From: a virus | Lineage: Duplodnaviria; Caudoviricetes | Length of the DNA stretch: 64,000 nt | Strand: one strand, 5' to 3' | IMG/VR virus record: IMGVR_UViG_3300014656_000027 | Location: 1,704-65,703 of that record | Shown: positions 14,001 to 45,037 of the stretch, in pieces | Position numbering within the stretch: position 1 is the stretch's first letter | How the letters are laid out: every line of letters begins with the position of its first letter | Made by a program: the position numbers and the translations under genes | Notes under the pieces: model-generated | What the model was told of the DNA's origin: nothing | The model's database searches: none | What the model saw: only the letters and a program-made list of their open reading frames with translations

Positions 14001-14748
14001 AGGATTTTATACTGATGGAGAGTTTAGATTAGCTCCTATTATACCAACATTCGTGAAACCTTTTTACGAGGTAGCTAATAACAGAAATTACTTTGGTGGG
14101 CGTATTTATCGTGAAGTTTTCGATAAGACTATATTGAGCAGTAAATTACACGCACGTCATGTAAACCCAGCTATGAAGTTTTTCACAGACGGATTGGTAT
14201 CATTAGTGCATCCACACCCTGATAGCGGAGTGAAAATATATGACAAGGATGGCAAAATAGTAAAGATACCAGGTTGGGCAGACATTAATCCAAGCAAAGC
14301 AGAACACATCCTATCTGGTTACTTAGCAGGAACAGGGAACTTTATAGCAGAAACGGTTGGTCTCGCTTTTATCCTTGCGAGTCCGGATGAAAAAATAGTA
14401 GCAGATAATATTCCGTTCATTAATCAATTTATCAGAACCTATCCTGAAAAGAACTGGGAGAAAATAGGTGAATACTACGATGCGTTAGAGGAAGTGGCTA
14501 ATAACAGAAAACTTTATAAACAAGCTATAAACGCTAAGAATAAAGACAAAAATCTTGCCGATCCTAATATTTACATGACCGATGAAAAAATGAGAGTAGA
14601 AAGCATCTTATATGGTCGTAACGGAGCTCAAAAACGTATTGATAATTTACAGACAGACTATGAACTAGGAAAGTTAAATTACGAGGAGTTTATGGATAAA
14701 AGAGCTGATATTATGCTTGAAGCAGTTAAAGAAATTAAAAACAAATAG
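5047..14748 (+). CDS. Giant polyvalent cargo protein (3233 aa) with zincin-like metallopeptidase motif and C-terminal LPD38-like domain
   Basis: IHELVGHKGL at ~11455; LPD38-like C-terminus (YYNVNPWMRDNYLIIP..YLSIPLPPFWRGFY); AYSAISFDPEKRA...MITGPANFPVERNRK...RVQLLFDDKPSEEVRTKLKSRGFHWSPREKAWQR segment typical of polyvalent/DUF3560-like proteins. Confidence 0.75.
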   Translation: MADQEKSIRDVFKKEKDNFLADDRFKSLSDENKKVALSRFFDSYGYDYLKNSRITDKDLQDALKEEWVEDTYKIALTPSEKKKAEISGETASDTGESSGDIPLKEQEDFSTISLLEEQAKTLDSLANQRDGWLKGFKDRLSEGVPEEGKLAKTDEEYEQKFNDWASKLKKTQLDLTENIERFNKKSEGDPQPLTKKEQAFKASPFQGVSFNFIEKMRPEEGKKFWDTYVGDMIERIGAGGATAVEGLSSLQNMPYKVAINKATQGLDPKLRKDIADIYLSSIPATASNQATQEYFKEKAKGLRGKSDRYEGKDFTQLWKEDKGAALGELFLTASESIPISAAAMFGGAPGLVVLGLIAGAGKYDELSYPEPPTAGNYNEINFPDISVPDDEIKDYINKTNMGEVAKLTNAVATGAFEYLSERLGSKAFGDYIVESISKIGGEATKDVIKTGISKWTAKMFEKFGLAFGPVIEGGEEGVNKLAENTVDYFTGVTDKWEITKDVKKSFWYGFAGGTQFSMAAAGPIMYGKIKQIDELNTAKSDIKTAIDGYIKARQHKDGRVYEVIHPETKEYNYILEGDPTNPKGDFVLVDNTGKISNVNEIDTKTVLSRDNIDKFSEYLYEKSIKELKDKTTPTNIKEGEQFNAKEFGYTVNKILGEFAEVEVLNTTTNQTQIDLIPLEELKILKTQGETDLNKRIEGIKLTPKPVKNEAPTEDIKPDAPIAEKPAEATKPVEATTKEDIKATEELLGDFTQIETVKETKEGLVLTRVTRPDGSEELITISKKQASLAQEIIDERAAVKPEAPVVEKPQEEVKSVKKEEKPPEPKTKVKEAMVKPLTVLRQELDDMKAQKARGSKDEGLDAKIAEWEEEIKLQEELSIPEEKGRTEEVVETEKPPEKETDASRIQQIKNSIREGEMILKSGKKVSGEKMTPEELDHVRRSVESAKAKLEPQDKLETLKKEYESKPVEELVALKKKLYPSPDIESAMTPEEKLLTQVIADKFSKVNAEVVEKRKKKENANLEEDKNKAETPKKAFPKTVRELSNLEAEEQSGLLSGAVFSTMEQGDTIKLGRDKTITVTKKTKPSKQTYAKLINGKKYEGSYDRITLALTDSKGKKYSADLWFNWVQNGQKMVSRWVRKGETRKSDPWGNLSRDIEADITVDLLNENNQFHDVSDSFKRVQKYLDTSDANLEGSNLDTSKIKTKQEDTIKPPVKEAPKKEAPKPKTRVTKNNIAQDIERENKAIRDEVIGTIEKFNDIVFSKEQKEKIAELENNTSFNIYAMELDTSLEDETMLAKIKAAGIDFNEGMITIKFKDKGEYKFPANSIPEMLKSITKGYPIKGESAMLYPRASTNAPMPKKAYISEKVDGKYRTKEEMIAEVKQRYQDMLDNIEMAKKMKAPAATIKIFEKELEHLRELAQYVENTDFELKDLTERAATYFAERFPTTSLSGSEIGNAYRLLEKYGQLSIDLKDGIEFVVDVLSEYEKVTTNVEETIKAKRAELKQVQSELDDKFMRKDGNGYKQPKNNNEEGELQRGKNRISSLEKSITALGETKIIKKAQEHERIKTIGDSEAFESEAQSLSDQAENSNEVGELEELSEKVDTLIEGVDSTVSDIQTGKEPWEMTKEAFGLIPRFHQHLFAGKMGIEKDVRIRDKSTQSLIDKTSKQTKGETGEQSPNEFYADGRDLHKEIVMKALSEGKEVPADVLADYPEFAEKPVTWKPEDLDYEIAYRAYSAISFDPEKRAEQTQKDYVASMDAMYKKLSAIAKSPEQIAETWKQMQIYKDGYLKHEKAYLAAKGRTMSSMITGPANFPVERNRKALAAEQKRGEEFIEWDKKNEKRAIAAVRGEAPQEQKDAEHKNTILRTIDDKLATIISIDTGKNLYTSRQLIVSNLSGFIKRIAKNGQVDDVKLIMDHIKTVQKDLKKPIFSANNPIWNLESTMQPKEDLTNKESQTIGKYKGVEIVNNHAIERVQLLFDDKPSEEVRTKLKSRGFHWSPREKAWQRKNTPEGIRVAKQIADGLFGDEIQKPDIKLKSTPRPIAKTPSDLTSGEFAKQQAEFDLDVRESINEAANEIGYTDNVEVVTHQNELPQNIRKASVNKKGEEVRIKGAFDPVTGKIYIVSQNSNSAEDAVMTLIHELVGHKGLRYLFGDTFDVKMKEIYKSIPEATINNLKKQGYKGEVDIAEEFISRTAELEEKPKWYTPFLSWLRDLFRKRFNIKYSHQDILNIISQSRDAIKRKGSKKPTVRFEDKTSEVDNNIRLKIDEEGIEGEILPETSKYMDARKESLQRNKDYYKRFRTFMQDRDLALRDMLEAAWKAGGMKTEGGQPYRDRTLSYGKMEYLFKGFKKGLIKPLIKTVSKMLKIKGIDKNMVMVYKIAKHAPERNMHFRVKEIEKLLPTEDIELTDEIEAKIEEINKRDFSGISALDINQEYSDNPDALAERLVKEFESKVPSELIDEFWQKQKAATDFVVDQWRESESITEEEHDEIKKMYDHYVPLRGWFEASEKQLLYHTKSGKGSSIQKAKGRESLPDDPLVYIQQMGFKAIQERITNEVNNSLLEFVMSNPNDELYEIKDVYYIKRHEGTGEEVWVTTIKRPSKEMFKEGNAKRVLYSGHQRLRTLSQAKQHEVIIHLGKQDVAIVMKGEMLPVAQIMNNQNTLVRIKGRDIDIEHLNSVLGNTFGRITNLQKRLMTSWNIVFPPKNVFRDIIEAGLTSLITGGPKQAAYFVAYVPTAFKTIATSIYHPSKFNPTENAEHQRYVNFQIDGGPTGFTHEQSIEDLSRELERAIKNEMRGFRVNAAKVTAQLEFMNQLFEDVTRFSIYVSAIKAGYSRKDAAAQAKEASVNFNRKGKGTKSFDSLIAFWNPSIQSLQKNAHLGKKYPKAFTAVATGMMLFGFLMAELNRLFDDDDDENGGYYNVNPWMRDNYLIIPKSNGEYLSIPLPPFWRGFYSWGTITSDFIHGERSAEDAAGTAVLNFIAGLSPIDIGGFYTDGEFRLAPIIPTFVKPFYEVANNRNYFGGRIYREVFDKTILSSKLHARHVNPAMKFFTDGLVSLVHPHPDSGVKIYDKDGKIVKIPGWADINPSKAEHILSGYLAGTGNFIAETVGLAFILASPDEKIVADNIPFINQFIRTYPEKNWEKIGEYYDALEEVANNRKLYKQAINAKNKDKNLADPNIYMTDEKMRVESILYGRNGAQKRIDNLQTDYELGKLNYEEFMDKRADIMLEAVKEIKNK

Positions 14749-17341: not shown

Positions 17342-18700
17342 ATGGAATTTGCCGATTTAGGGATTAAAGAACAAAAAGGGAGACAGCGTTACGCAACAAT
17401 ATGTCCTGAATGTGATTCTACAAGAACAAAGCATCAAGGGGCAAAATGCTTAACCGTCAATGATGAAGTTGGTAATCGTTGGTACCGCTGCTCGCACTGT
17501 AGCTGGTCGGGTAATATCGACTTTCAAGGACGTTATGATGCTGTGAAAGAAAAGAGTAAGATACCTACAACACAGAAGGCATTTAGCTTAAAAGTAAGGG
17601 AGTATTTCCAGAAGCGTGGAATAACTCAAAACACGGCAAAGAAAGCTAGGTTATATGAGATGCAGCAAGGGCAAAGAACGATAATATGCTTCCCATATTT
17701 TATGAGCCTCACCTTAGTAAACGTTAAGTACCTCAATATGGACTGGACTAAAGGAGATAAAGGGCCAAAATGGTTTCAGCTACCAAAAGATTTAGGTACA
17801 AGAATAATCCCGTTCGGATTACAGCACATCAAAACACATGATGAAGAAGGGACTAAATTCCCAAAAAATACGTTAATTATAACAGAGGGGGAGTGGGATA
17901 TGCTTACTTATATGGAGTGTGGGTATGTTAATGTAATTTCTGTACCACAGGGAGCTCCATCATTAAACAGTAAGAACTTTGATAAGGAGTTTGCTTACTT
18001 ACAAGATAAATACGTGGTAAGCGTTCTTGCAGATATTGATTTGATTTATTTAAGTGTGGATAACGATGAACCTGGAATTAACTTAAGGGGGCATCTTGCT
18101 ATGATACTCGGCAAAGAAAAATGCAAGGTTATTCGCTACCCCCCTGGTTATAAGGATATCAATGAGGTGTTTGCTGGTGATGAGAAGAAAGGATTAGAAG
18201 CGTTAGGGAAAACAGGAGTGGATGAATGCCTCTCTAACTCATCATCAGTACCTATAAAAGGAGTTGTTAAGGCATCACACGTAAGAGAAGATCTTGATAT
18301 GTTACGTAATCAAGGATTCACAAAAGGATTAGGATGTGGTGTTCCGGAAGTTGATTATCTGTTTACAGTAAAACCGAAGCTAATTACTTTTATTACAGGT
18401 GTACCAGGGTGTTTCACAGGAGAACAATTAATTCATACAAATAAAGGGGTGTTACAAATCAAGGATATAAGGCGGGGAGATTATGTTTTAACTTACGATC
18501 ATTTACATAAGATTAATGAGTATAGAAAAGTAAAAGAACGTCACCATTACAAGAAACATCAAGGGAAACTCTACAGAATTACTTTAAAAGACGGGACTAT
18601 AATCAAAGTAACTGAAAATCATAAATTTTTTACAGGCGTGGAATATGTGCAAGTCCGTGAAATTATTAGTATGTTTGCAAATAAATCTAAAAATAAATAG
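17342..18700 (+). CDS. T7 gp4/Twinkle-like primase-helicase, N-terminal fragment fused to split-intein N half
   Basis: Zn finger CPEC...CSHC, TOPRIM IITEGEWD and DNDEPG, helicase start ITFITGVPG followed by intein block A CFTGEQLIHT. Confidence 0.9.
   Translation: MEFADLGIKEQKGRQRYATICPECDSTRTKHQGAKCLTVNDEVGNRWYRCSHCSWSGNIDFQGRYDAVKEKSKIPTTQKAFSLKVREYFQKRGITQNTAKKARLYEMQQGQRTIICFPYFMSLTLVNVKYLNMDWTKGDKGPKWFQLPKDLGTRIIPFGLQHIKTHDEEGTKFPKNTLIITEGEWDMLTYMECGYVNVISVPQGAPSLNSKNFDKEFAYLQDKYVVSVLADIDLIYLSVDNDEPGINLRGHLAMILGKEKCKVIRYPPGYKDINEVFAGDEKKGLEALGKTGVDECLSNSSSVPIKGVVKASHVREDLDMLRNQGFTKGLGCGVPEVDYLFTVKPKLITFITGVPGCFTGEQLIHTNKGVLQIKDIRRGDYVLTYDHLHKINEYRKVKERHHYKKHQGKLYRITLKDGTIIKVTENHKFFTGVEYVQVREIISMFANKSKNK
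18410..18697 (+). mobile_element. Split intein N-fragment (96 aa)
   Basis: Cys1 at 18410 (CFTGEQLIHTNKG), block B KVTENHKFF, then a stop at 18698. Confidence 0.9.
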
Positions 18701-18702
18701 TT

Positions 18703-19233
18703 ATGGAAAGATGGCAAACGATACCTGATTTTAGTCTTTATGAGGCTTCTACTATGGGAAGAATTAAAACTTTTAATTGGAAGAACCAAGGTTTAGAGAG
18801 AATAATGAAACCAGCCTTGGATGGTACTGGGTATTTAAGGACGATGCTTAAGGGTGATGATGGAAAAACGTCTACAATAAAAGTTCATAGGATAATACTC
18901 CGAACTTTTCGCGGAGAGCCGACTAATGATAAAAACGAATGTAATCATATAAACGGAATACGTTCAGATAACAGGGTTATGAATTTAGAATGGGTAAGCC
19001 ATTCTGAAAATATATCTCATTCATTTAAAATAGGGTTAAGTTCAAATAAGGGACAAAATAATCCAGCATCTACATTGACAGATAAGCAGGTTTTAGAAAT
19101 CAGAAAAAACTATACCTATGGTAAAAAAGCAAGAAGCGGAGTAACCAAAAAAGAACTCGCTGAACAATATGGAACAACATTTCACGTAATTAAAGCTATC
19201 ACACAAGGAAGAACATGGAAGCATCTATTATAG
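18703..19233 (+). CDS. Free-standing NUMOD4-HNH homing endonuclease between the intein halves
   Basis: WQTIPDFSLYEASTMGRIK (NUMOD4); HRII...CNHINGIRSDNRVMNLEWVSHSEN (HNH). Confidence 0.9.
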   Translation: MERWQTIPDFSLYEASTMGRIKTFNWKNQGLERIMKPALDGTGYLRTMLKGDDGKTSTIKVHRIILRTFRGEPTNDKNECNHINGIRSDNRVMNLEWVSHSENISHSFKIGLSSNKGQNNPASTLTDKQVLEIRKNYTYGKKARSGVTKKELAEQYGTTFHVIKAITQGRTWKHLL

Positions 19234-19352
19234 AATTAGAAGATATTTTTAGTATAGAAGAAATTCCAATGGAAGATGTTTACGATCTCACCGTTGAGGA
19301 TAATTCAAATTATTATTTGGCCACAGCTAAATATCCTATCCTAGTCCACAAC
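19215..19352 (+). mobile_element. Split intein C-fragment (46 aa)
   Basis: Block F VYDLTVEDNSNY, block G LVHN, Ser+1 at 19353. Confidence 0.9.
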
Positions 19353-20240
19353 AGCGGAAAATCTGTATGGATAAGATGGTGGGTAGTAACCATGATACAG
19401 CACAATGCAGATTTAGGACTCAAATGGGCGTTGTTCACTCCAGAGAATAGACCAGTAGCCAGAGAATACGCTAAGATAGCAGAGGCGTTAACAGGTATGG
19501 CTATGGAGAAGGGGAGGCACAACAGCATGAATGATGAGATGTACCGAAAGGCAATGAATTTTGTGGAGAAGCATTTTTTTGTCATATCACCGGATAAGCT
19601 GAACTATGAGACTTTTGGAGGGAGAATAAACGTTGACAGGGTAAACACCTTACAGTCCATACAGGAGTATGTAAGCTATCTTAAAAAGACAGAGAATATC
19701 TACGGCTACATTATCGACGCTTGGAATAAGATAGAGCATGAGCAGCCTAAGATGCAGAGTGAAACTTCATTTATAAGTGAACAATTAGATAAGATGATAA
19801 ACTTCAATGATTATTGGGATTTACATGGTATCATAATAGTGCATCCTAGAAAGATAGAGATGGTGGGGGAGAACTACAAAATGCCATCACTATATGATAT
19901 CAAAGGGTCGTCAGCATGGAAGGAGAAAGCAGATATAGGAATACTAATACATCGCTATAAAATGCGTAAACTAACAGCCCATGCAGCCGCAGAGAAGGGA
20001 TTAGACTTTAATAGGCTTGATGAGGATGAGAAGTATGAAGTGGTTGAAAAAGCACCCACAATAATAAGAACAGAGAAAATAAGATTTGAGGAGTTAGGGC
20101 ATGAGAATAGAGTTAAGATGGAGATGAATGTATGGGGGAAATTCAGCGTTTCATCTAATGGGAAAAGTAAGTCGGCAGCCCCAATAAACCCTCCGAATAT
20201 TCCTGATATGGATAATGATGAAGACCTAATCCCGTTTTAA
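19215..20240 (+). CDS. Split-intein C half fused to the C-terminal SF4 (DnaB-like) helicase domain
   Basis: VHN|SGKS completes Walker A; IIDAWN (Walker B), IIIVHPRK, YDIKGSSAWKEKAD, KIRFEELG. Confidence 0.9.
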   Translation: MEASIIELEDIFSIEEIPMEDVYDLTVEDNSNYYLATAKYPILVHNSGKSVWIRWWVVTMIQHNADLGLKWALFTPENRPVAREYAKIAEALTGMAMEKGRHNSMNDEMYRKAMNFVEKHFFVISPDKLNYETFGGRINVDRVNTLQSIQEYVSYLKKTENIYGYIIDAWNKIEHEQPKMQSETSFISEQLDKMINFNDYWDLHGIIIVHPRKIEMVGENYKMPSLYDIKGSSAWKEKADIGILIHRYKMRKLTAHAAAEKGLDFNRLDEDEKYEVVEKAPTIIRTEKIRFEELGHENRVKMEMNVWGKFSVSSNGKSKSAAPINPPNIPDMDNDEDLIPF

Positions 20241-20332: not shown

Positions 20333-20563
20333 ATGTCAAAAGAATCTAAAAAAACAGAAAAATGCGAATGCCCACATTGTGGGTCAAAAGACTTCTATGT
20401 TCACGAATTTGAATATTGGAAAGCAAGTGTTGATGAAGATGAACCAAACACGATAAACTGCTGGCATAAAAGTAGTGGAATTGATTTAGTTGAATGTGCT
20501 AAATGCGAAGCCGATATTACAGAGTTAAGCCTTAATCCTAATTTTAACTTTAACTTCCAATGA
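20333..20563 (+). CDS. Small zinc-ribbon protein
   Basis: CPHCGS...CAKC. Confidence 0.55.
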   Translation: MSKESKKTEKCECPHCGSKDFYVHEFEYWKASVDEDEPNTINCWHKSSGIDLVECAKCEADITELSLNPNFNFNFQ

Positions 20564-21240
20564 TAGTCTTACATAAAAAAGATGCTTTTGCATTTTTAGA
20601 AACATTGCCAAATGAAAGCGTTGATCTTGTTTTTACAGACCCACCATATTGGACTTTAAACAAATGGCGAAATGTAGGAACAACTACAAGGCTTGGTGGT
20701 AATGCTGATAAAGACAAACAAACAGGCTGGTTTGAAACTATTGATAGTGAAGAATTATGGCAATTGATTTGTGAAATACACAGAGTTCTAAAAAAAGACC
20801 GACACGCTTTTATTATGTGCGATGGGCAAACATTAAAATGGATATTGGGATATGTAGAAGAAGCTGGGTTTGATTATTACAAGCCTTTAATTTGGGATAA
20901 AGTAAGTTTAGGAATGGGTTATCATTTTAGAAGCAGACACGAATTTATTGTGATGCTTGATAAAGGCAAAAACCGAAAGCCGAAAGATTTATCATTACCT
21001 GATATTTTTACTGTACCAATGGCAAAAGGTGGTTATCCTACTCAAAAGCCTTTAGGATTAATAAATCCATTTATTGAGCAATTTACGGAAGAAAACGAAC
21101 TTGTGGTTGATCCTTTTTTTGGAAGTGGAACAGTGCCTTTAAGTTGTCAAGATTTTAAAAGAAACTTTCAAGGTTCAGATATAAGTGATAAAGCACATAA
21201 ATATACAAATGAAAGACTTGGGGTATTATCATTATTTTAA
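20560..21240 (+). CDS. DNA N6-adenine/N4-cytosine methyltransferase (beta class)
   Basis: VFTDPPY catalytic motif, YPTQKP and VVDPFFGSGT SAM-binding motif. Confidence 0.9.
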   Translation: MIVLHKKDAFAFLETLPNESVDLVFTDPPYWTLNKWRNVGTTTRLGGNADKDKQTGWFETIDSEELWQLICEIHRVLKKDRHAFIMCDGQTLKWILGYVEEAGFDYYKPLIWDKVSLGMGYHFRSRHEFIVMLDKGKNRKPKDLSLPDIFTVPMAKGGYPTQKPLGLINPFIEQFTEENELVVDPFFGSGTVPLSCQDFKRNFQGSDISDKAHKYTNERLGVLSLF

Positions 21241-21422
21241 AAGTACGAGAAAGTTATATTGCCATTTTAAAAATAAACATATTATGGAAGAATTAATTTT
21301 AAACAAATACTCAAGAACACTTAGCTTACGAGCAAGATCAAATACCTTTCTGATAACGGGGGGGCTATGTGCCATGGCGTATTAGCCCGTGTTATAATTA
21401 GTTAAATTTAAAAATAGAAATT

Positions 21423-21548
21423 ATGAAAATTAGAAAAATTGAGCCACCAAGTGTTAAGATAGAATCAAATTTTTTATGGTATAAAAGGATTTGGATACTT
21501 ATAAGAAACCCTTTCACCTACATATTTAAAGGTTATGTTGAATGGTAA
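21423..21548 (+). CDS. 41-aa cassette-borne hypothetical protein (MKIRKIEPP...GYVEW), not in ORF track
   Basis: Fills the unit 21391-21559; stop abuts the AAC core. Confidence 0.5.
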   Translation: MKIRKIEPPSVKIESNFLWYKRIWILIRNPFTYIFKGYVEW

Positions 21549-21658
21549 TTAATTATAACGGTACGGCAATATGATTAGTTGCCATACTACAAATTTTAAA
21601 AATTAGTAATAACTTGACAGGCAATTAATTATATTGCTTGTTATAAACTGATAAAATT

Positions 21659-21844
21659 ATGACAAAATTAGAGATGAAACTTGGTAGAAGAAAAATAATG
21701 CTCGAAGAACGCAAAGAGCAAATTTTGAATGATATAAAAGGCAGACCAACATTGACCAGCGATATGATTATTCACGAAGCAAAATTATTAGATAAAATTG
21801 ATATTCAAATTTGCGAACTTGAAAGAATGCTTGCCCGTGAATAA
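21659..21844 (+). CDS. Cassette-borne hypothetical protein (61 aa)
   Basis: Fills the unit 21640-21861. Confidence 0.6.
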   Translation: MTKLEMKLGRRKIMLEERKEQILNDIKGRPTLTSDMIIHEAKLLDKIDIQICELERMLARE

Positions 21845-21927
21845 TTTTATTTGTTTATAACGTTCAGGCTATGTGCAGTGCAATTAACGACAAAACTTAA
21901 AAGAAACGATAAAAAATAAAAAAAGGG

Positions 21928-22179
21928 ATGGAAAAACAAATAAAAATAGCAGCAAAACTCTATGAATGTAGAGATACTGCAAAACGATTCTTCAGAGAAG
22001 ACTATTCAGAGAAATTACGAACATATAAAAATGTGATTGAAGGACACCAAAAGAAATTTAATTTAGATGTGCTTCCAAGCGTGTATGAGATTTGCAGCTT
22101 GGAAAGCGTGAGAGATGACGGAATGATGACAATGTTATTTATGGCAGCCGCGGTAGAGTTAATTGAACCAAGTGCGTAG
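21928..22179 (+). CDS. Hypothetical protein (83 aa) nested inside a hairpin loop
   Basis: Lies wholly between the arms at 21867-21881 and 22235-22249. Confidence 0.6.
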   Translation: MEKQIKIAAKLYECRDTAKRFFREDYSEKLRTYKNVIEGHQKKFNLDVLPSVYEICSLESVRDDGMMTMLFMAAAVELIEPSA

Positions 22180-22392
22180 GCTTTTTATTTTTTGCTTATG
22201 ATACCGATAAAAGATTTTATAAAGAGACAAAAACGCATTGCATATAGCCCTTGTTGTGTGCCGTTGTTCTTTGTTAGGGGCGTTGCAGATGCTTATAAAC
22301 TTACAAATTTTAATGCGAATGCATTTTCAATGGTCACACAACTTAGAAATATATACCATACACTAATTTAATGTATAATAAAAACAAGAACA

Positions 22393-22647
22393 ATGAAATT
22401 ACAAGGAACAGTGGTTTTGCTAACTCCAGAAGAGAATTTAGAGAAAACAGATAAGGGGATTATAATTCCTAAAACAATCAAAGACAAGCCTAATTTTGGC
22501 ATTGTCGTTGATGTTGCAGATGGATGCACACAACTAAAGGCAGGGGATAAGGTAAGGTACAATCGTAAGTCGGCGAATATAGCACACGTAAACGGCGTTG
22601 AGTATCATTTTATAAACGAAGGACAAGCATTTTATATTGAGAAATGA
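22393..22647 (+). CDS. groES: GroES/Cpn10-like co-chaperonin
   Basis: KTDKGIIIP mobile loop, GIVVDVADG, LKAGDKVRY. Confidence 0.8.
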   Translation: MKLQGTVVLLTPEENLEKTDKGIIIPKTIKDKPNFGIVVDVADGCTQLKAGDKVRYNRKSANIAHVNGVEYHFINEGQAFYIEK

Positions 22648-23042
22648 GAGACATTAAAAAAGAAGTAGCAAAAGAGCTGGAGCATTTCAAGTTATGGTAT
22701 TGTGATCCATTGAACGAGAGGGTGGACAATGGCAGATCCGTCATGGATGGGTGGGACGAACAAAACATCCCTGGTGATAAGCAAAAAGCTATGGACTTAT
22801 TCCGAAAACTGGATGCTCAGAATGTAGACTTTCACAGATTGTTTCATTCTATCAACCGTATGCTGGATGTTTATAATCAACAACAATTACTACTCCTAGA
22901 GGTTTATAATGAGTGGTATAATCTAGTTTCCATAGAAGGGAAGCAGCCCACGGCATTAATGAGTTCACAGGTGAATGTGTTACAAGCCATCTTTGATAAG
23001 ATACAAGGGAATATTGATTTAAAAAAGAGCAAGAAGAAATGA
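22644..23042 (+). CDS. Hypothetical protein
   Basis: 132 aa ORF coupled to both neighbours. Confidence 0.55.
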   Translation: MRDIKKEVAKELEHFKLWYCDPLNERVDNGRSVMDGWDEQNIPGDKQKAMDLFRKLDAQNVDFHRLFHSINRMLDVYNQQQLLLLEVYNEWYNLVSIEGKQPTALMSSQVNVLQAIFDKIQGNIDLKKSKKK

Positions 23043-24142
23043 GAAAAGATTTAAAAGTACATTTGATAGAGCCTCACAGCGAAGAGTGGTATAAGTTTCG
23101 CATGAATGGTATAGGGGGGTCTGAGATAGGAACCGTATTAGGAATTAACAAGTACGACACCGCAGTTCGTTTATACCATGAGAAGATAGGAAACATAGAA
23201 CAACGCAGAATAGATAGCGAGAGAATGTTCTGGGGAAGGATGAATGAAGACAACATAGCTCGCGTCTGGGGTTTTTACGATGGGACTAAAGACGGCTACG
23301 TCGAGAACTACAACAACAATAAAATAGTTCGCAAATGCCGATCCGTAAATGGCTATGTAGTAAATCCTGATTATCCTTGGTTGTTTGCATCAGTGGATAG
23401 GTTAATAAACATTGAAGGAGGCTTCAACCTAATCACAGGAGAGCCATTAGAGAAAGAGGGTATATTAGAATGTAAGAATATGAGTTATTGGGTATCTCAG
23501 ATGTGGGAAGATGGAATACCTATATATCACCTTGCACAAATATCTCAATACTTTATTGTTTTAGATTCTGATTACGCGGAGATAGCTATGCTAGTTGATG
23601 GAGGGCAATTACAGGTGGAGAAGATTATGCGTGATGACGCGTTGACAGAACGCATCATAAGTATATCTAAGAACTTTTGGTATAATCGCATAGTACCAGG
23701 TAGGGAAGCTGTAATAAAGCGAAACGAAGCTGATATGCAGGGTAATCTTGGAGAAAGTGAGAAATGGGAAGCGGAGATACAGAGATATGAGCCCGAACCA
23801 GACGAATCGGAAGCCTACAAAGACTTTATGGAAGAGAAGTTCTTAAAGGTAAGAGAATCTATTGACGGCACAATGGAGCTATACAAGGTAGCTAAGTATG
23901 ATAATTTCCTTAAGTCTCTTAAGAATAAGATAGTCAAGGAGCGCAACAGATGTAAGAATTTATTTATACAATTTTTAGGACTACACGGAGCAGAGAGTGT
24001 TGACTTCGGAAAGTTAGGAGTGGTTAACTGGTCACCACGAAAAGGGTCTAAGAGTAGAACCTTCAACAACCGCACAAAGGAAAAGCCTAGTGAGGATGTT
24101 ATAGAAAGAGAATTTGAAAAGTTAGAAACTGATTTATTCTAA
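23039..24142 (+). CDS. YqaJ-like (lambda Exo family) recombination exonuclease
   Basis: EEWYKFRMNGIGGSEIG, FASVDRL, ILECKN, AQISQY. Confidence 0.85.
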   Translation: MRKDLKVHLIEPHSEEWYKFRMNGIGGSEIGTVLGINKYDTAVRLYHEKIGNIEQRRIDSERMFWGRMNEDNIARVWGFYDGTKDGYVENYNNNKIVRKCRSVNGYVVNPDYPWLFASVDRLINIEGGFNLITGEPLEKEGILECKNMSYWVSQMWEDGIPIYHLAQISQYFIVLDSDYAEIAMLVDGGQLQVEKIMRDDALTERIISISKNFWYNRIVPGREAVIKRNEADMQGNLGESEKWEAEIQRYEPEPDESEAYKDFMEEKFLKVRESIDGTMELYKVAKYDNFLKSLKNKIVKERNRCKNLFIQFLGLHGAESVDFGKLGVVNWSPRKGSKSRTFNNRTKEKPSEDVIEREFEKLETDLF

Positions 24143-25095: not shown

Positions 25096-25539
25096 ATGAG
25101 CTTCTTCGATATAGACTTTAAGATACAAGGTAATCCAATTGCGCTTAAGAGGCATAGGTCATTCCAGAAAGGAGAATTTAGAGGTACTTATGATCCATCC
25201 TCTGATGATAAAGCTAATTTTCTCACTAAAGCTATATCATATAAGCCAGAGATACCTTTTGATGAGCCACTGTACGTGAAGTTTACTTTTTGTTTTTCAC
25301 GACCTAAGAACCACTATAAGACAGGAAAGAATGCTCACATACTAAAAGATAATGCTCCCAAATGGAGAACGTCAACACCGGACGTTGATAATTTAGAGAA
25401 GTTTGTAGGAGATGCTTTAAATGGTATTTTTTGGAAAGACGATTCTAAGATTGTAGATATGTCAGGGTCTAAGCCATACGGTGAGCAACCATACATACAA
25501 GTGCAAGTAGCACGGCTAAACAAATTTAATAAATCTTAA
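25096..25539 (+). CDS. rusA: RusA-family Holliday junction resolvase
   Basis: RP..HY..G, PDVDNLEKFVGDALNGIFWKDDSKIV. Confidence 0.9.
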   Translation: MSFFDIDFKIQGNPIALKRHRSFQKGEFRGTYDPSSDDKANFLTKAISYKPEIPFDEPLYVKFTFCFSRPKNHYKTGKNAHILKDNAPKWRTSTPDVDNLEKFVGDALNGIFWKDDSKIVDMSGSKPYGEQPYIQVQVARLNKFNKS

Positions 25540-27878: not shown

Positions 27879-28234
27879 ATGAAAAAAATTACAGTTAATC
27901 ATCCTGAATTTTATAATCTTAACTTTAAATTCATAGAAGAAGAGTGGAAAGACATTCATGGATTAGAAAATGAATACCAAGTGAGTAATTATGGGAGGGT
28001 TCTTTCTAAAGAGCGATTTGTAAAAGCAAAGGGACTACAATACGTTCCTGGTAATTTAAGGAAAATTCAAAAAACCAGAGGTTGGTTACACGTATCCTTA
28101 AATGTTAATGGGGAAAAATTCATTTAGGTTATCATAAAACCGAAAAAAAAGCATTAGAATCATATAATAATTTTATACAAACAAAAGAAGAGTATTATGG
28201 AAAAAGAGAACAAATCAGCGTCGTCACTTGTTAA
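27879..28234 (+). pseudogene. Degenerate NUMOD4-(no HNH)-AP2 homing endonuclease remnant
   Basis: EEWKDIHGLENEYQVSNYGRV (NUMOD4), stop at 28127; the -1 frame continues IHLGYHKTEKKALESYN (AP2-like). Confidence 0.6.
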
Positions 28235-29744
28235 ATTTAAAAGCCTGTTAAATCAGGAGCAAATTAAAAACAAGTTTAATGAAGCATTAGGCAAGAAGGC
28301 TCCAATGTTTATTAGTAACTTAGTTACAATAGCAAGCGGAAGCGCAGAACTACAGAAATGTGAGCATATGAGTATTATCTCATCCGCGTTAATGGCTGCA
28401 AGTATGGATTTACCCTTAACACCAGGGTTAGGTTTTGCGGGCATTGTTCCTTATTGGGATGGACCATCAGGAATGATGAAGGCTCAGTTTCAAGTAATGA
28501 AGAAAGGATTCATACAATTAGCACAGAGAACGGGGTTGTTCAAAACTATTAATGTTTGTGAGGTTTATAAAGGAGAGATAAAAAAACACAATCGGTTTAC
28601 AGGAGAATATGAGTTTGATGAGGCAGGGAAATTGTCGGATGAAATCATCGGCTATGTTTCTTTCTTTAAATTAGTTAATGGGTTTGAGAAGTTTTATTAT
28701 ATGCCTATTGAGAAGCTTGAGACACATGCTAAAAGATATAGTAAATCTTTCCAAAGAGGAAAAGGAAAATGGGCAGATAAAAGCGATGGAGGTTTCGAGC
28801 AAATGTGTGAAAAAACCGTTTTAAAACTTAATTTATCTACCTACGCACCTCTTAGTGTTGATATCAATATGATGAATGCAGTTATCTATGATCAGGCAGA
28901 AATAAGAGACGTCGAAGCTAAAGAGTATGAATATATGGATAATGATGAGGCTTCCGAACAAAAAACGTTAGAGGTTTTTGAAACTAAATCTGGGTCTAGT
29001 ATAGTGGTTGATAAAAAACACATGGACAGAGGCGAAACTTTAATAAGCAAAGCCAACGCTATCATAGACAAGCGTAATGGGAAGGTGGATGAGAAAGACG
29101 CACTTGAAATAGCTTTTGATAAAGAAGTTCCTCCTTTAAGAAGGGGGATGGTAGTAATCAAGGATGGAGTGGATAATATCATTCCTATTTACACGGATGC
29201 TGAGATGGCTAAAATGCAGACTGATGAATTAGATGGCTTAATCAATACTGATGATGAAATGATAATAGCCACTAAAGTTATACCAGGTAGAAACACCAAT
29301 AAAAAGCTTCGCACAATTATTTTAGCAAAGATTGACGGAACGTTAAAACAATTACTTGATGAGAATGAATCAGATCCTAATACTATCGTGGAGGAAACCA
29401 CAAGCACATCCCCACCAATAATGTTAGATGATGATGACCCCTTTAACGTACCAATGGTAGCAGTAGAAAGTGAAGATGACGATGTTGACACCAACAACGG
29501 CACAGATGATTATGAGTCTAATGTGTTCGGCATAATGGTTACAGACAACCCAGGAGGAAGAAGACCATTTGATGAGGTAAAGCAGTTGCATGAGGAGTTC
29601 AGCACAATTGCAGGACTAGATAACACTGCATTCATATCTATCTTAAGCACAAAGCTTCCACAGTTTCAACATTACAAGAATATGGAGGAGTTTTGCTACA
29701 GCGGAACAAAGTCGGAAATAAACACCTTGCTTAATAGCATATAG
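28197..29744 (+). CDS. recT: RecT-family single-strand annealing protein with long acidic C-terminal extension
   Basis: SIISSALMAASMDL...LGFAGIVPY...AQFQVMKKGFIQLAQRTG...W...FEQMCEKTVLK. Confidence 0.85.
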   Translation: MEKENKSASSLVKFKSLLNQEQIKNKFNEALGKKAPMFISNLVTIASGSAELQKCEHMSIISSALMAASMDLPLTPGLGFAGIVPYWDGPSGMMKAQFQVMKKGFIQLAQRTGLFKTINVCEVYKGEIKKHNRFTGEYEFDEAGKLSDEIIGYVSFFKLVNGFEKFYYMPIEKLETHAKRYSKSFQRGKGKWADKSDGGFEQMCEKTVLKLNLSTYAPLSVDINMMNAVIYDQAEIRDVEAKEYEYMDNDEASEQKTLEVFETKSGSSIVVDKKHMDRGETLISKANAIIDKRNGKVDEKDALEIAFDKEVPPLRRGMVVIKDGVDNIIPIYTDAEMAKMQTDELDGLINTDDEMIIATKVIPGRNTNKKLRTIILAKIDGTLKQLLDENESDPNTIVEETTSTSPPIMLDDDDPFNVPMVAVESEDDDVDTNNGTDDYESNVFGIMVTDNPGGRRPFDEVKQLHEEFSTIAGLDNTAFISILSTKLPQFQHYKNMEEFCYSGTKSEINTLLNSI

Positions 29745-31906: not shown

Positions 31907-31984
31907 ACGCTAACTGAGCGCGGCTATGTTTAGTACCGACAAAAGAACGAGAATTTAATTATTAACGATAAAAATAAGTGAGCG

Positions 31985-32353
31985 ATGAAAAAAGAACAGA
32001 TTTTAAAATGCAACAATATACAGATTGAGAGATTAAAACAAGAAAAACCAATGCTTGTACATAATATATTAAAAGCAATGGATGATTATGCCGAACTAAG
32101 CGAACGACAAGAAACGTCTGATACCGAAATTCAAGACAAAAATAAGGTATTAAATATAGCTGTTATGCACCGTTTGAAAGCAGTACAGACTTTAAAAAAT
32201 AGCCCGGACTTACTGCTGCTAATGGCAGAATTTAAACGAGCTAATTTTGTTGGCTCATACATAGTGGAGCATCAGATAGAATCAGAAGAAGAGTTAGCAG
32301 CAGTATGGCTGTCTGAATTGGAAGCACAGTTGTTTCGGTCAAATGGTGCATAA
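31985..32353 (+). CDS. Hypothetical protein spanning a hairpin/unit junction
   Basis: Codon 60 is the core GTT (LNIA-V-MHR); stop TAA lies inside GCATAAC. Confidence 0.6.
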   Translation: MKKEQILKCNNIQIERLKQEKPMLVHNILKAMDDYAELSERQETSDTEIQDKNKVLNIAVMHRLKAVQTLKNSPDLLLLMAEFKRANFVGSYIVEHQIESEEELAAVWLSELEAQLFRSNGA

Positions 32354-32502
32354 CGGTCGGCAATATAAAATCGTGCTGGATTACGAGGCACGAAACTATC
32401 AAACCTCTACGAACTTTGAAACGAGAGAAAATATTTAATAACCGCACGAAGCCCAGCATGTTTTATATTGCGTGTTGTGCGTAGTGCTTAATAATCAAAA
32501 TT

Positions 32503-32727
32503 ATGGGAGCAATACACGATTCAGAAAAAAGATTAAAAGAACTATTTGATTTAGAACAAGCACTTGGAATTAACCAAGAAGATAGGTTTCATAATTCCGA
32601 AGAAGGGAAAAAACAATATGAAGCCTGTTTTGAAAATCACCCTTCGTGCGATGATGTAAAAAGTGAAGCAACTATCGAAGAACTTACAGCAAAAATTGAA
32701 AAATACAAGCGTGGTGATTTTTCTTAA
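32503..32727 (+). CDS. Cassette-borne hypothetical protein
   Basis: Fills the unit 32474-32740. Confidence 0.6.
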   Translation: MGAIHDSEKRLKELFDLEQALGINQEDRFHNSEEGKKQYEACFENHPSCDDVKSEATIEELTAKIEKYKRGDFS

Positions 32728-32776
32728 CATTATGCACAACTTAGAAATATATACCATACATCATTAAACAGGAAAC

Positions 32777-33308: not shown

Positions 33309-33593
33309 ATGAAAGCAAAAAATAATATATCAATTGGTGATAACATTGAATTTGTTTCAGGAAATTTTAAAGGATTGACTGGAATAGTCACAAACACCGA
33401 ATACGGGAAACAATTTAATGCAGAAACCAAGCCTGACGGTTATACATTGTTAGCAACTGAGCCTTGTGCCAATTGCAAAGAAACTGTTAAAGAATGTGCT
33501 TGTATGAGAAACATTTGCCATAAATGCCAAAAACCTGTGGGGAACATAACCTTTACAATATGTGATGAATGTTGGGATATAGAGTTTCCATAA
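33309..33593 (+). CDS. Chimeric protein: KOW-like N-terminus plus cassette-borne Cys-rich domain
   Basis: IGDNIEFVSGNFKGLTGIV, then EPCANCKETVKECACMRNICHKC encoded inside unit 33449-33610. Confidence 0.6.
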   Translation: MKAKNNISIGDNIEFVSGNFKGLTGIVTNTEYGKQFNAETKPDGYTLLATEPCANCKETVKECACMRNICHKCQKPVGNITFTICDECWDIEFP

Positions 33594-33659
33594 AGGGCTT
33601 TGTTGCTAACGGAACGCAGGTATGTGAAGATTTTTTAACGATAAAAAAAGGAGAATATT

Positions 33660-33902
33660 ATGAATGGATTGATAAAATTAATAGAAGAAGAATTTAAGAA
33701 AAATGATATAAACTTTGATAATAGCTTAAATGCTAATTATATAGATGATAGTTTTGGGGCTGTTATGATATGCATTGAAAATGTAGTTAAAAATTTGCAT
33801 ATACCTGATGTTGTGGGTATGTTGCCGAAATGCGAACATAGAAACATTGATAGACAGGATGGTTGTGATGAATGCCTAGATTGTGGTGTAAGAAACTATT
33901 AA
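33660..33902 (+). CDS. Junction-spanning hypothetical protein with C-terminal Zn ribbon
   Basis: Codon 51 is the core GTT (LHIPD-V-VGM); CEH...CDECLDCG downstream. Confidence 0.6.
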   Translation: MNGLIKLIEEEFKKNDINFDNSLNANYIDDSFGAVMICIENVVKNLHIPDVVGMLPKCEHRNIDRQDGCDECLDCGVRNY

Positions 33903-33995
33903 AGGCAATTACCTACAACGGAACGCAGCTATGTTTGGGTGCGGATTACGAAGCAATTAACTTTCAATAAATTATAAACATTAATACGAGAAAAA

Positions 33996-34205
33996 ATGAA
34001 TGATTTACCACAAAAACCACAATCAAATATAGGTGCTGTTAACGGCTGTGCTTCACACTCTTGGGATAAAGTGAAGGGTATTAAAATAGCAGGAAAGCCA
34101 TGGGTTGGCATTAAAAGCAAGACAGTTAGAACCTGCACAATTTGCGGATATAAAGAATATTGGACAAATGACGGTATGTTCTGCGGGTGGTTTAGTATTG
34201 CGTAG
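33996..34205 (+). CDS. Junction-spanning hypothetical protein with Zn ribbon
   Basis: Codon 15 is the core GTT (NIGA-V-NGC); HSW...RTCTICG. Confidence 0.6.
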   Translation: MNDLPQKPQSNIGAVNGCASHSWDKVKGIKIAGKPWVGIKSKTVRTCTICGYKEYWTNDGMFCGWFSIA

Positions 34206-34354
34206 CATTGCCGTTAACGTTAAAATATATGATTAGTAGCCGTAAATAAGCGACTACCTATCGAGTTAAAAACTAAATTAATAAACACTTAATAGCCTTT
34301 AAAATAAGCACAACACAGGCTATTAATTATATATAGTGTTGTGCATAGTACGGT

Positions 34355-34597
34355 ATGAAAATTAAAAAGAAACACTTAAAAACGATTGAAGTAGATGTAA
34401 ACAAAAATGGTGGTTTTACCGTTTGGATAACAGAAAAGCGATTAATTAACGGACAAAAAAAGAGCATTAAACATTGGATATTAGACGGAAGTTGTATAAA
34501 AGAAGATGGCGAAATTAGGTTAGGGAATTATGAAAGAAATGACATTAATGCGGTGCATCGTAAACAGAACAATACCATTTATGTGGTTAAGAAGTAG
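34355..34597 (+). CDS. Cassette-borne hypothetical protein
   Basis: Fills the unit 34338-34610. Confidence 0.6.
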   Translation: MKIKKKHLKTIEVDVNKNGGFTVWITEKRLINGQKKSIKHWILDGSCIKEDGEIRLGNYERNDINAVHRKQNNTIYVVKK

Positions 34598-34752
34598 TAT
34601 TATGCACAACGGTCGGGGCTAAGAATAGGCAGGGATAACGAGCAACACCCTTTCAGCCTACACGAATGATAAAACGAAGCTCACAGGCTTGATTAAGCAC
34701 ATACGCCCTGCTTATTTTTAGCCTTTGTTATAGGGCGTTTATTCTTATTAAA

Positions 34753-34935
34753 ATGAAAAATTTAGCAGAAATTAAATCAAAGTTTGAAAGTTCAAAACAA
34801 GAACTTATTGATAAGCAGAAAGAGTATAATAACCTTTCTCAAATCAGCTGTATGGATTCAGGTGGTCGTTTACTCGATAATCAAATTCAGGTGTTAAAAG
34901 GAGTTGTAAAAGCGTTGGAGTGGGTTCTTCTTTAA
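34753..34935 (+). CDS. Cassette-borne hypothetical protein
   Basis: Fills the unit 34727-34947; ends ALEWVLL. Confidence 0.6.
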   Translation: MKNLAEIKSKFESSKQELIDKQKEYNNLSQISCMDSGGRLLDNQIQVLKGVVKALEWVLL

Positions 34936-34976
34936 ATGCCCTATAACTTGTTTATATGTACAACTAACTTATCCAA

Positions 34977-39109: not shown

Positions 39110-39180
39110 AATATCTATCTTTTTGTTTACGACCTGTCACTATTGACAGGTTTCGCCCAATTAGGGCTCATCAGGTAAAC

Positions 39181-39360
39181 TTAACGAGATTTATAGACGT
39201 TTACGCCTACAAATACATCTTGATGCTTGTCAAGCTTCTTATTGCCTAATGTTGAGGCAATGGAAATTGTTTTGCCGGACTTTGAAGGACCGAACGACTT
39301 GGAAAGATCAACAGTTACAGTTAAAATATTTCCTTCCTCTTTAATACTTACGTTTTGCAT
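39181..39360 (-). CDS. Conserved small protein (MQNV...TVDLSKSFGPSKSGKTISIAST)
   Basis: 59 aa; the ATG at 39360 fits better than the longer track ORF. Confidence 0.6.
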   Translation of the reverse strand: MQNVSIKEEGNILTVTVDLSKSFGPSKSGKTISIASTLGNKKLDKHQDVFVGVNVYKSR

Positions 39361-44705: not shown

Positions 44706-44896
44706 TGCTATTGACGAATAGATCGTAGCTCCTGAAAAGCCTCTTCACAATGCTCAGAATGTCAGGTCTGAATCGTAGGTCAGAGAGAGTAAAGGAAATC
44801 TGTCTTTATATCTGAAACCAATACAGTAAAAGTGGATGTTACCAGTTGGAACAAACCAATCGAGAAGCGTATAAATTAAGTTTTATGCGCTTTTTG
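44706..44896 (+). ncRNA. Candidate ~190-nt structured small RNA
   Basis: Bounded by a tatatttg promoter (44691) and an aagcgtataaa/tttatgcgctt terminator; no ORF over ~21 aa; several hairpins. Family not identified. Confidence 0.35.
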
Positions 44897-44951: not shown

Positions 44952-45025
44952 CGTGTGGTGATAGCAATTGGTAGCTGGCAAGACTCATAATCTTGAGGTT
45001 GGAGGTTCGAGTCCTCCCCACGCAA
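44952..45025 (+). tRNA. tRNA-Met(CAT), initiator-like
   Basis: Cloverleaf: CGTGTGG/CCACGCA with C1:A72 mismatch, CAAGA-CTCATAA-TCTTG, GGAGG-TTCGAGT-CCTCC; CCA not encoded. Confidence 0.9.
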
Positions 45026-45037
45026 CTAGTTCATTGA

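Follow-up and report, generated by a model that had tools for sequence, protein, structure and literature searches.

An integron-like chain of interlocking inverted repeats encloses small genes in a tailed phage

The 64,000-nt window analysed here (positions 1,704 to 65,703 of the IMG/VR record IMGVR_UViG_3300014656_000027; coordinates below refer to the window) covers nearly all of a 65.7-kb phage record with an estimated completeness of 89%. Between 33449 and 34947 the window carries a chain of interlocking inverted repeats around a set of small genes, and this chain is real and represents one array of a widespread family. An initial annotation, made from the letters alone, had named nine segments in this region and likened them to an integron cassette array; all nine are present where it placed them, each with its stem. 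We refer to a unit running from GTT to AAC as U and to a hairpin running from AAC to GTT as E, numbering them in genome order (U1–U5 and E1–E4, alternating). The nine segments divide the region without gaps, U and E by turns, and adjoining segments overlap by a single AAC or GTT triplet, so that each core belongs to two alternative hairpins, as had been proposed. At a repeat score of ≥11.5, the threshold used for comparing the window with shuffled sequence, the window holds 10 U and 13 E repeats with 13 junction triplets in common, as against means of 1.7 U and 2.4 E repeats (maxima 4 and 6) and no shared junction at all in 40 dinucleotide-preserving shuffles. The excess over shuffled sequence is clear and rules out a chance origin of the chain; the overall inverted-repeat density at 30–36 kb is 3–4 times the background.

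The segments, all on the + strand, share one plan and differ in how they relate to the genes. U1 (33449–33610) holds the Cys-rich C-terminal part of the open reading frame (ORF) 33309–33593, its 5' arm lying within the reading frame; the arms, GTTAGCAAC.. and ..GTTGCTAAC, form 9 perfect pairs, or 15/17 with one wobble counted, with a G.T pair at position 11. E1 (33608–33812, 205 nt) has a 19-nt stem (33617–33635 with 33789–33807; 16/19 Watson–Crick pairs plus two G.T pairs, at both family positions), and its loop takes in the first 50 codons, start included, of ORF 33660–33902, the Cys-rich C-terminal module of which constitutes U2 (33810–33919, 110 nt, repeat score 9.5). Read by eye, the U2 stem comprises 10 bp including one G.T, a 1-nt bulge and then 6 more, 16 pairs in total. 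The weakest stem is that of E2 (33917–34040, 124 nt), with 11/13 pairs rising to 20 with wobbles; its loop contains the start codon of ORF 33996–34205. U3 (34038–34218, 181 nt) pairs at 13/15 Watson–Crick positions plus one G.T, with one T.T mismatch, and the non-coding E3 (34216–34340, 125 nt) has a 17-bp stem of 15 Watson–Crick and two G.T pairs. In U4 (34338–34610) the consensus arms of the family flank the 80-aa ORF 34355–34597 (13/14 pairs plus G.T). E4 (34608–34729, 122 nt) is non-coding, with a G+C-rich 20-bp stem (16 Watson–Crick and four G.T pairs), and U5 (34727–34947) flanks the 60-aa ORF 34753–34935 (14/15 pairs plus G.T). After U5 the array has a looser end, AAC TTGTTTATATG..

The chain extends further than the nine segments, also covering 31912–32740 and 21355–22534. 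The upstream array (31912–32760, +) consists of E 31912–32164, U 32162–32354, E 32352–32476, U 32474–32740 and a hairpin-less site at 32738–32760. Its 125-nt E at 32352–32476 is the fourth of the four hairpins of 122–125 nt that had been counted. The second array (21355–22534, +), with an N6_N4 DNA methyltransferase gene (20560–21240, +) just upstream of its start at 21355, is made up of E 21355–21393 (39 nt), U 21391–21559, E 21557–21642 (86 nt), U 21640–21861, E 21859–22255, which contains ORF 21928–22179, and a last U at 22253–22342 or 22253–22534. An identical 23-nt sequence, starting AACTTAGAAATATATACC, follows the last unit of both arrays, at 22340–22362 and 32738–32760, giving the second array an end site that matches that of the upstream array. 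These end sites resemble the hairpin-less array ends found ahead of Xer-like genes in the relatives L116, L155 and L156; in the window they are followed by ordinary genes.

The same anatomy is seen in the Polaribacter phages P12002S and P12002L, in four Cellulophaga phages and in many IMG/VR contigs. Querying IMG/VR with a 5'-arm 14-mer yielded 18 true units among the matches listed, and querying 185,579 bacterial species genomes with the consensus 3'-arm 17-mer yielded 22 matches, about one of them within a typical unit; these being two different queries, the counts give a rough contrast only. In these searches the family is apparently mostly confined to phages, here those of Flavobacteriaceae. 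To describe it, we assembled a non-redundant set of 59 U units, drawn from the window, P12002S, the four Cellulophaga phages and IMG/VR contigs, each oriented by its ORF. Across these units the U helix is 14 bp long, with pairing at chance level from position 15 on. Positions 1–3 are GTT/AAC, position 4 is R/Y and position 12 is T–A; positions 5–8 vary in sequence, yet form Watson–Crick pairs in 49–58 of the 59 units. Position 11 is G.T in 49/59, the G always on the sense strand, in the 5' arm, whereas the positions other than the fixed ones together contain 16 G.T or T.G and 10 A.C or C.A pairs. The E stems begin 4–6 nt inside AAC and finish 0–3 nt ahead of GTT, with near-invariant G.T pairs at stem positions 7 and 12. 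Despite unrelated loop sequences, E lengths over all loci fall into three classes of about 44, 85 and 123 nt (41–47, 82–90 and 119–125), with some ORF-bearing E hairpins of 205–397 nt in addition. It had been suggested that structure rather than sequence is conserved: this holds for the varied paired arms, but not for GTT/AAC, the R at position 4 and the G.T pairs at U position 11 and E positions 7 and 12, all of which are near-invariant.

Comparison of relatives points to maintenance of the pairing itself. E3 is kept in five phages of different genera, in which both partners of four stem pairs have been replaced and neither G.T pair varies; its homology to L040 starts at (T)AAC. The ORF of U4 has a 61%-identical homologue in L151, where the arms differ at two adjacent positions on both sides with the helix retained, a double compensatory change. 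Stem pairing is, judging from these paired substitutions, under selection. Several simple origins of the repeats were rejected. The arms of diverged units are matched across the gene, not within the hairpin, which excludes a simple palindromic intergenic repeat of the miniature inverted-repeat transposable element (MITE) kind; transposons or MITEs also fit poorly with arms that differ between units, the lack of target-site duplications and the triplets shared by neighbours. Invertible segments are ruled out by the constant G.T orientation, with only one A.C case in 59 units, and we dropped the idea that the consensus arm is a dif half-site because positions 5–8 vary freely. There is also some resemblance to the GTTG..CAAC of Cas13b CRISPR repeats.

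The genes are fitted closely to the stems. Stop codons lie either within the final TAAC, 1 nt from the AAC end, or 11–13 nt from the end of the unit. Among the 59 units, about 40% of the U 5' arms are translated, as are some 20% of the 3' arms; when a 5' arm is in frame, the gene has its start codon in the loop of the E ahead of it, and GTT is read in frame in 17/25 cases. There are also gene-less U hairpins of 60–90 nt (L116, reverse strand, 8199–8261; L008, 1424–1483 and 2166–2228; window, 22253–22342), which could be empty shells that receive ORFs in their loops. In every phage examined, and on either genome strand, the orientation of the G.T pairs follows the sense strand, and on account of these fixed pairs the coding strand folds better than its complement.

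Such a strand bias is what one would expect if the stems act in mRNA, the main rival to the explanation that we favour and one that we consider rather unlikely. Each cistron of an early polycistronic transcript would then be bracketed by a 14-bp helix, with hairpins between the cistrons; the stems could be processing stalks of the RNase III type, end-protecting panhandles or a means of showing start codons in loops, and module borders at stem feet would reflect mere selection against helix-breaking recombinants. Pairing over 150–1000 nt comes naturally to RNA, the position of the stops and of the starts just within loops suits this explanation, and several complete or near-complete phages have such arrays and no recombinase. 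The RNase III stalks of rRNA operons and of T7 early mRNA are similar in that long-range helices bracket each functional RNA, with a hairpin between early genes; they differ in that the phage helix is only 14 bp and its arms are often translated. With so many of the arms translated, ribosomes would melt the helices. Moreover, the wobbles occupy fixed positions and are not scattered as neutral G.U pairs would be, an Rfam covariance-model search of 31–36 kb with E-values up to 1 matched no family, and a role in mRNA does not account for the invariance of the GTT/AAC triplets or for a hairpin-less end site that is conserved next to a recombinase gene.

Comparing relatives, as the initial annotation had advised, shows that related phages differ by whole modules, exchanged at stem feet or within loops; many of the borders fall at AAC, and others at GTT, at start codons or inside an E arm. 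Cellulophaga phages phi19:3 and phi13:2 have in common, at 99% identity, a block of 371 nt made up of an E of 122 nt and a U, which is bordered exactly from AAC to AACGG and differs between the two in position and in order relative to another shared block. Among the four Cellulophaga phages, four different last arms face one conserved array end, AAC|AATGTTATATAAC. U 32162–32354 has an 87% identical copy in L153, a 118-kb contig, with homology confined to 32159–32363 and bordered at GTT and AAC; a different E upstream gives the L153 copy a different protein N-terminus. Likewise, in L155 the last module ahead of the Xer-like gene matches E 21557–21642, with its arm and start codon, at 91% identity, the homology opening at AAC and stopping just after ATG. 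Families of E reappear upstream of unrelated ORFs, and no fewer than 10 unrelated ORF families, several of them DNA methyltransferases, lie between the consensus arms GTTGTGCATAGTAC and TAG TATTATGCACAAC.

Reappearing E families are also compatible with the notion that the hairpins are passive recombination linkers: intergenic elements, possibly terminators, that offer short homologies and template-switching stall points to the RecT, YqaJ exonuclease and RusA of the phage without any site-specific enzyme. We regard this as unlikely. All three proteins are encoded in the window; their genes, among 23039–24142, 25096–25539 and 28197–29744 (+), form a Red-like recombination module. A 1080-nt indel between P12002S and P12002L crosses over within the 5-nt TGTAT common to two E arms, as such linkers would lead one to expect, and there is a precedent in the promoter early stem-loop (PeSL) promoter–terminator cassettes of T4-type phages (PMC2839356, PMC4122927), the nearest recombination linkers described. 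PeSLs, too, are repeated intergenic stem-loop modules next to small accessory genes in plastic regions, they bound indels and swaps between close relatives, and one module can stand upstream of unrelated genes. They differ in being direct repeats with a recognisable early promoter and in lacking gene-spanning complementary arms, AAC/GTT triplets and a link to a recombinase. In our region the stem-loop is present and the early sigma-70-type promoter part is not enriched: promoter-like sites number 11 as compared to 21 expected from shuffles, intrinsic terminators are likewise not enriched, and neither a Bacteroidetes −7 box (TAnnTTTG) nor a sigma-70 promoter matched the GTT junctions consistently by eye. 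Passive linkers would also leave unexplained the covariation of the two ends of each gene across that gene, the fixed G.T marks and the adjacency of recombinase genes.

That adjacency is seen in relatives. The array of L116 stops, at its last AAC, 35 nt before a gene for a 280-aa Xer-family recombinase in the same orientation; the only homologues found for this protein, at about 35% identity, are those of L155 and L156/L157, where the layout is repeated and the recombinase gene begins 45–60 nt past the last AAC. The layout thus occurs in three lineages of one small Xer-like tyrosine recombinase. In the four Cellulophaga phages another tyrosine integrase lies about 300 nt past the array end. 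Common to array ends are an AAC, about six bases and then ATATA (AAC-N6-ATATA), with no partner arm and no hairpin.

Viewed along its bottom strand, an integron runs as repeated A|AC–attC–GTT–gene units up to AAC–attI, with intI following in sense, and the GTT end of a cassette complements the inverse core at the opposite end of that cassette. This bottom-strand order would appear to be carried by the phage arrays on their own top strand, with one topological difference only, namely that the genes lie on the folded strand; on this reading the layout seems to follow integron logic point by point. The similarities comprise an AAC/GTT-ended outer helix and, after an asymmetric spacer, an inner helix with a variable loop, in 40–125 nt; complementarity between the 5' end of a cassette and the inverse core of its 3' end, here over 14 bp and specific to the unit; small genes that lack promoters and are set in arrays; in some phage relatives, a terminal site that has no hairpin and adjoins the gene of an Xer-family recombinase; and a cargo rich in DNA methyltransferases. 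The folded-site plan of integrons (R helix, unpaired spacer, L helix, variable loop, 57–141 nt) is recognisable in E hairpins of 39–125 nt with spacers of 4–6 and 0–3 nt. The strand mark of integrons, extrahelical bases that make the bottom strand, opposite the genes, the folding one, is lacking: the phage arrays have G.T wobbles in place of extrahelical bases, with no conserved bulges found, and it is the coding strand that folds, so that a hairpin comes before its gene. In addition, the outer helix has 14 bp and not 7; the phage cores match only YAAC/GTTR of the attC cores RYYYAAC/GTTRRRY, positions 5–7 not being YYY/RRR; phage genes often begin within a hairpin loop; hairpins and gene units both act as modules; there is no IntI; and the arrays are almost restricted to phages. 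Lacking IntI, canonical cores and extrahelical bases, and with genes in the opposite orientation, the phage arrays are integron-like but not members of the integron family. Of the cassette system that had been put forward for this phage, the layout, the exchange at AAC/GTT feet and the array ends 35–60 nt upstream of an Xer-like gene in relatives stand, whereas the enzyme, the cores, the extrahelical bases and the folding strand do not match integrons, and exchange points are located in loops and at start codons as well.

It is highly improbable that the arrays are true integron cassettes, that is, clusters of attC sites lacking integron-integrases (CALIN), derived from bacterial integrons and moved by a host IntI. 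Qi et al. 2023 (PMC9892861) report a HattCI/Infernal prediction of two attC sites, forming a CALIN, in P12002L; attC2, at the array end and in opposite orientation, recombined with IntI1, and attC1, an E-type short hairpin, gave no verified IntI1 recombinants. The predicted sites, the successful one among them, and the attC-like hairpin geometry and 40–125-nt lengths speak for such an origin. As in a CALIN, an integrase is absent from the record. The failure of the E-type site with IntI1 speaks against it, as do the opposite orientation to the genes, the near-absence of the consensus arm from the bacterial genomes, the lack of IntI and the scores of the adjacent recombinases of relatives, which reach 113 bits against TIGR02249 (cut-off 265) or match XerD weakly and thus fall far under the IntI cut-offs. 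In the main text and one supplementary file of PMC9892861, gene-spanning arms, the chain and the fixed wobbles are not described, and the P12002L attC oligonucleotide sequences given there have no verbatim match in the 7.8-kb P12002L locus. The suggestion that this architecture is new to phages therefore needs correcting for the two predicted P12002L sites, one of them of E type; apart from that 2023 hint, and as far as these parts of PMC9892861 go, the feature is undescribed in this form.

The explanation that we favour, and to which we would give an even chance, is that stem-closed modules are shuffled in integron-like fashion on a folded single strand, by a catalyst that is absent from the record. 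The substrate would be a folded single strand, probably DNA exposed in replication or recombination; an Xer-like recombinase would cut at the 5' AAC of the hairpin and move modules as circles, and within a circle the two ends of a gene would pair as the outer stem of a single long hairpin, which would account for the complementarity of gene ends. Our main reason for preferring a DNA-level cassette mechanism is the correspondence with integron order together with the adjacency of recombinase genes. The recognition of an E-type hairpin of P12002L as an attC site by HattCI (PMC9892861) also speaks for it. The initial annotation had placed the catalyst elsewhere in the genome or in the host, and searching the genome revealed no tyrosine or HUH recombinase in the 89%-complete record, PF00589 having no match anywhere in its 65.7 kb. 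The arrays of this record would consequently depend on an enzyme acting in trans (from a co-infecting relative, from host Xer proteins or from the missing 11% of the genome), or else would be inherited arrays now reshuffled only by the phage RecT/YqaJ system. Other Xer-dependent modules offer a partial parallel: in the pdif modules of Acinetobacter plasmids and in integrative mobile elements exploiting Xer (IMEX), gene modules lie between sites of alternating orientation and the Xer-type enzyme need not be encoded by the module, as we would suppose for the phage arrays. Whereas pdif sites are conserved 28-bp double-stranded sequences, the phage arms are unit-specific and covary.

Several observations weigh against single-strand shuffling. 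No tyrosine, serine or HUH recombinase was found in the 65.7-kb record (89% complete), and a tyrosine recombinase is absent also from the complete P12002S genome and from a 175-kb relative; the window phage and P12002S have no dedicated enzyme in common, sharing only HNH endonucleases and methyltransferases. The foldable strand is the mRNA strand and the stems span up to 1 kb, which fits RNA as well as DNA. Identical arms surround unrelated ORFs, something that a strict cassette model would not lead one to expect. The only E-type hairpin tested in the literature is the one without verified IntI1 recombinants, as reported in PMC9892861. Finally, homology breaks also at start codons and in loops, and the P12002S/P12002L indel has its crossover inside E arms, so the borders may only reflect selection that keeps stems intact; selection for intact helices could, alone, yield much of the border pattern.

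A more specific version of the favoured mechanism can be put forward tentatively, as possible though doubtful. The system would be a phage-confined integron analogue, in which Xer-like tyrosine recombinases act on coding-strand hairpins and shuffle whole accessory genes as well as N- and C-terminal protein modules joined in frame at GTT, the N-terminal modules being of the hairpin-loop and the C-terminal ones of the stem-closed kind, and in which the recombinase-less arrays of lytic phages are serviced in trans. Should the stems prove to be sites of recombination, marine Flavobacteriaceae phages would possess a system dedicated to gene acquisition and shuffling, with a cargo that would include anti-restriction methyltransferases. 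It would parallel integrons, having evolved separately, would help to explain the fast turnover of phage accessory regions, and would supply a second natural example for the unsolved origin of cassettes and folded sites. If the stems act in RNA instead, early genes each bracketed in their own helix would be an unreported organisation of phage mRNA. In both cases the exact 14-bp length of the helix and the fixed G.T marks provide sharp experimental handles.

As to the phage itself, weak DNA matches connect the window with phages of Flavobacteriaceae, namely of Cellulophaga, Polaribacter and Tenacibaculum. A search with two flanking proteins recovered no close relatives, and the cargo ORFs of the window matched no PHROG family. 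Outside the arrays, one ORF of 3233 aa occupies 5047–14748 (+). Within a cluster of small genes on the minus strand there is a hammerhead HH9-like match (39110–39193, −) over the full model length, at 30 bits and an E-value of 3.6e-4, the gathering score of 52 not being reached. A tRNA-Met gene (44952–45026, +) is directly followed, up to 45224, by a match to permuted transfer-messenger RNA that covers the full model (45.6 bits as compared to a gathering score of 47), and an abiF-like RNA match is located at 44731–44767. Finally, at 17342–20240 (+) a Toprim primase ORF with a Hint/intein N-part at its end is followed by a NUMOD4-HNH endonuclease gene and then by an ORF opening with an intein C-part, an arrangement suggestive of a split intein whose halves are separated by an endonuclease gene.

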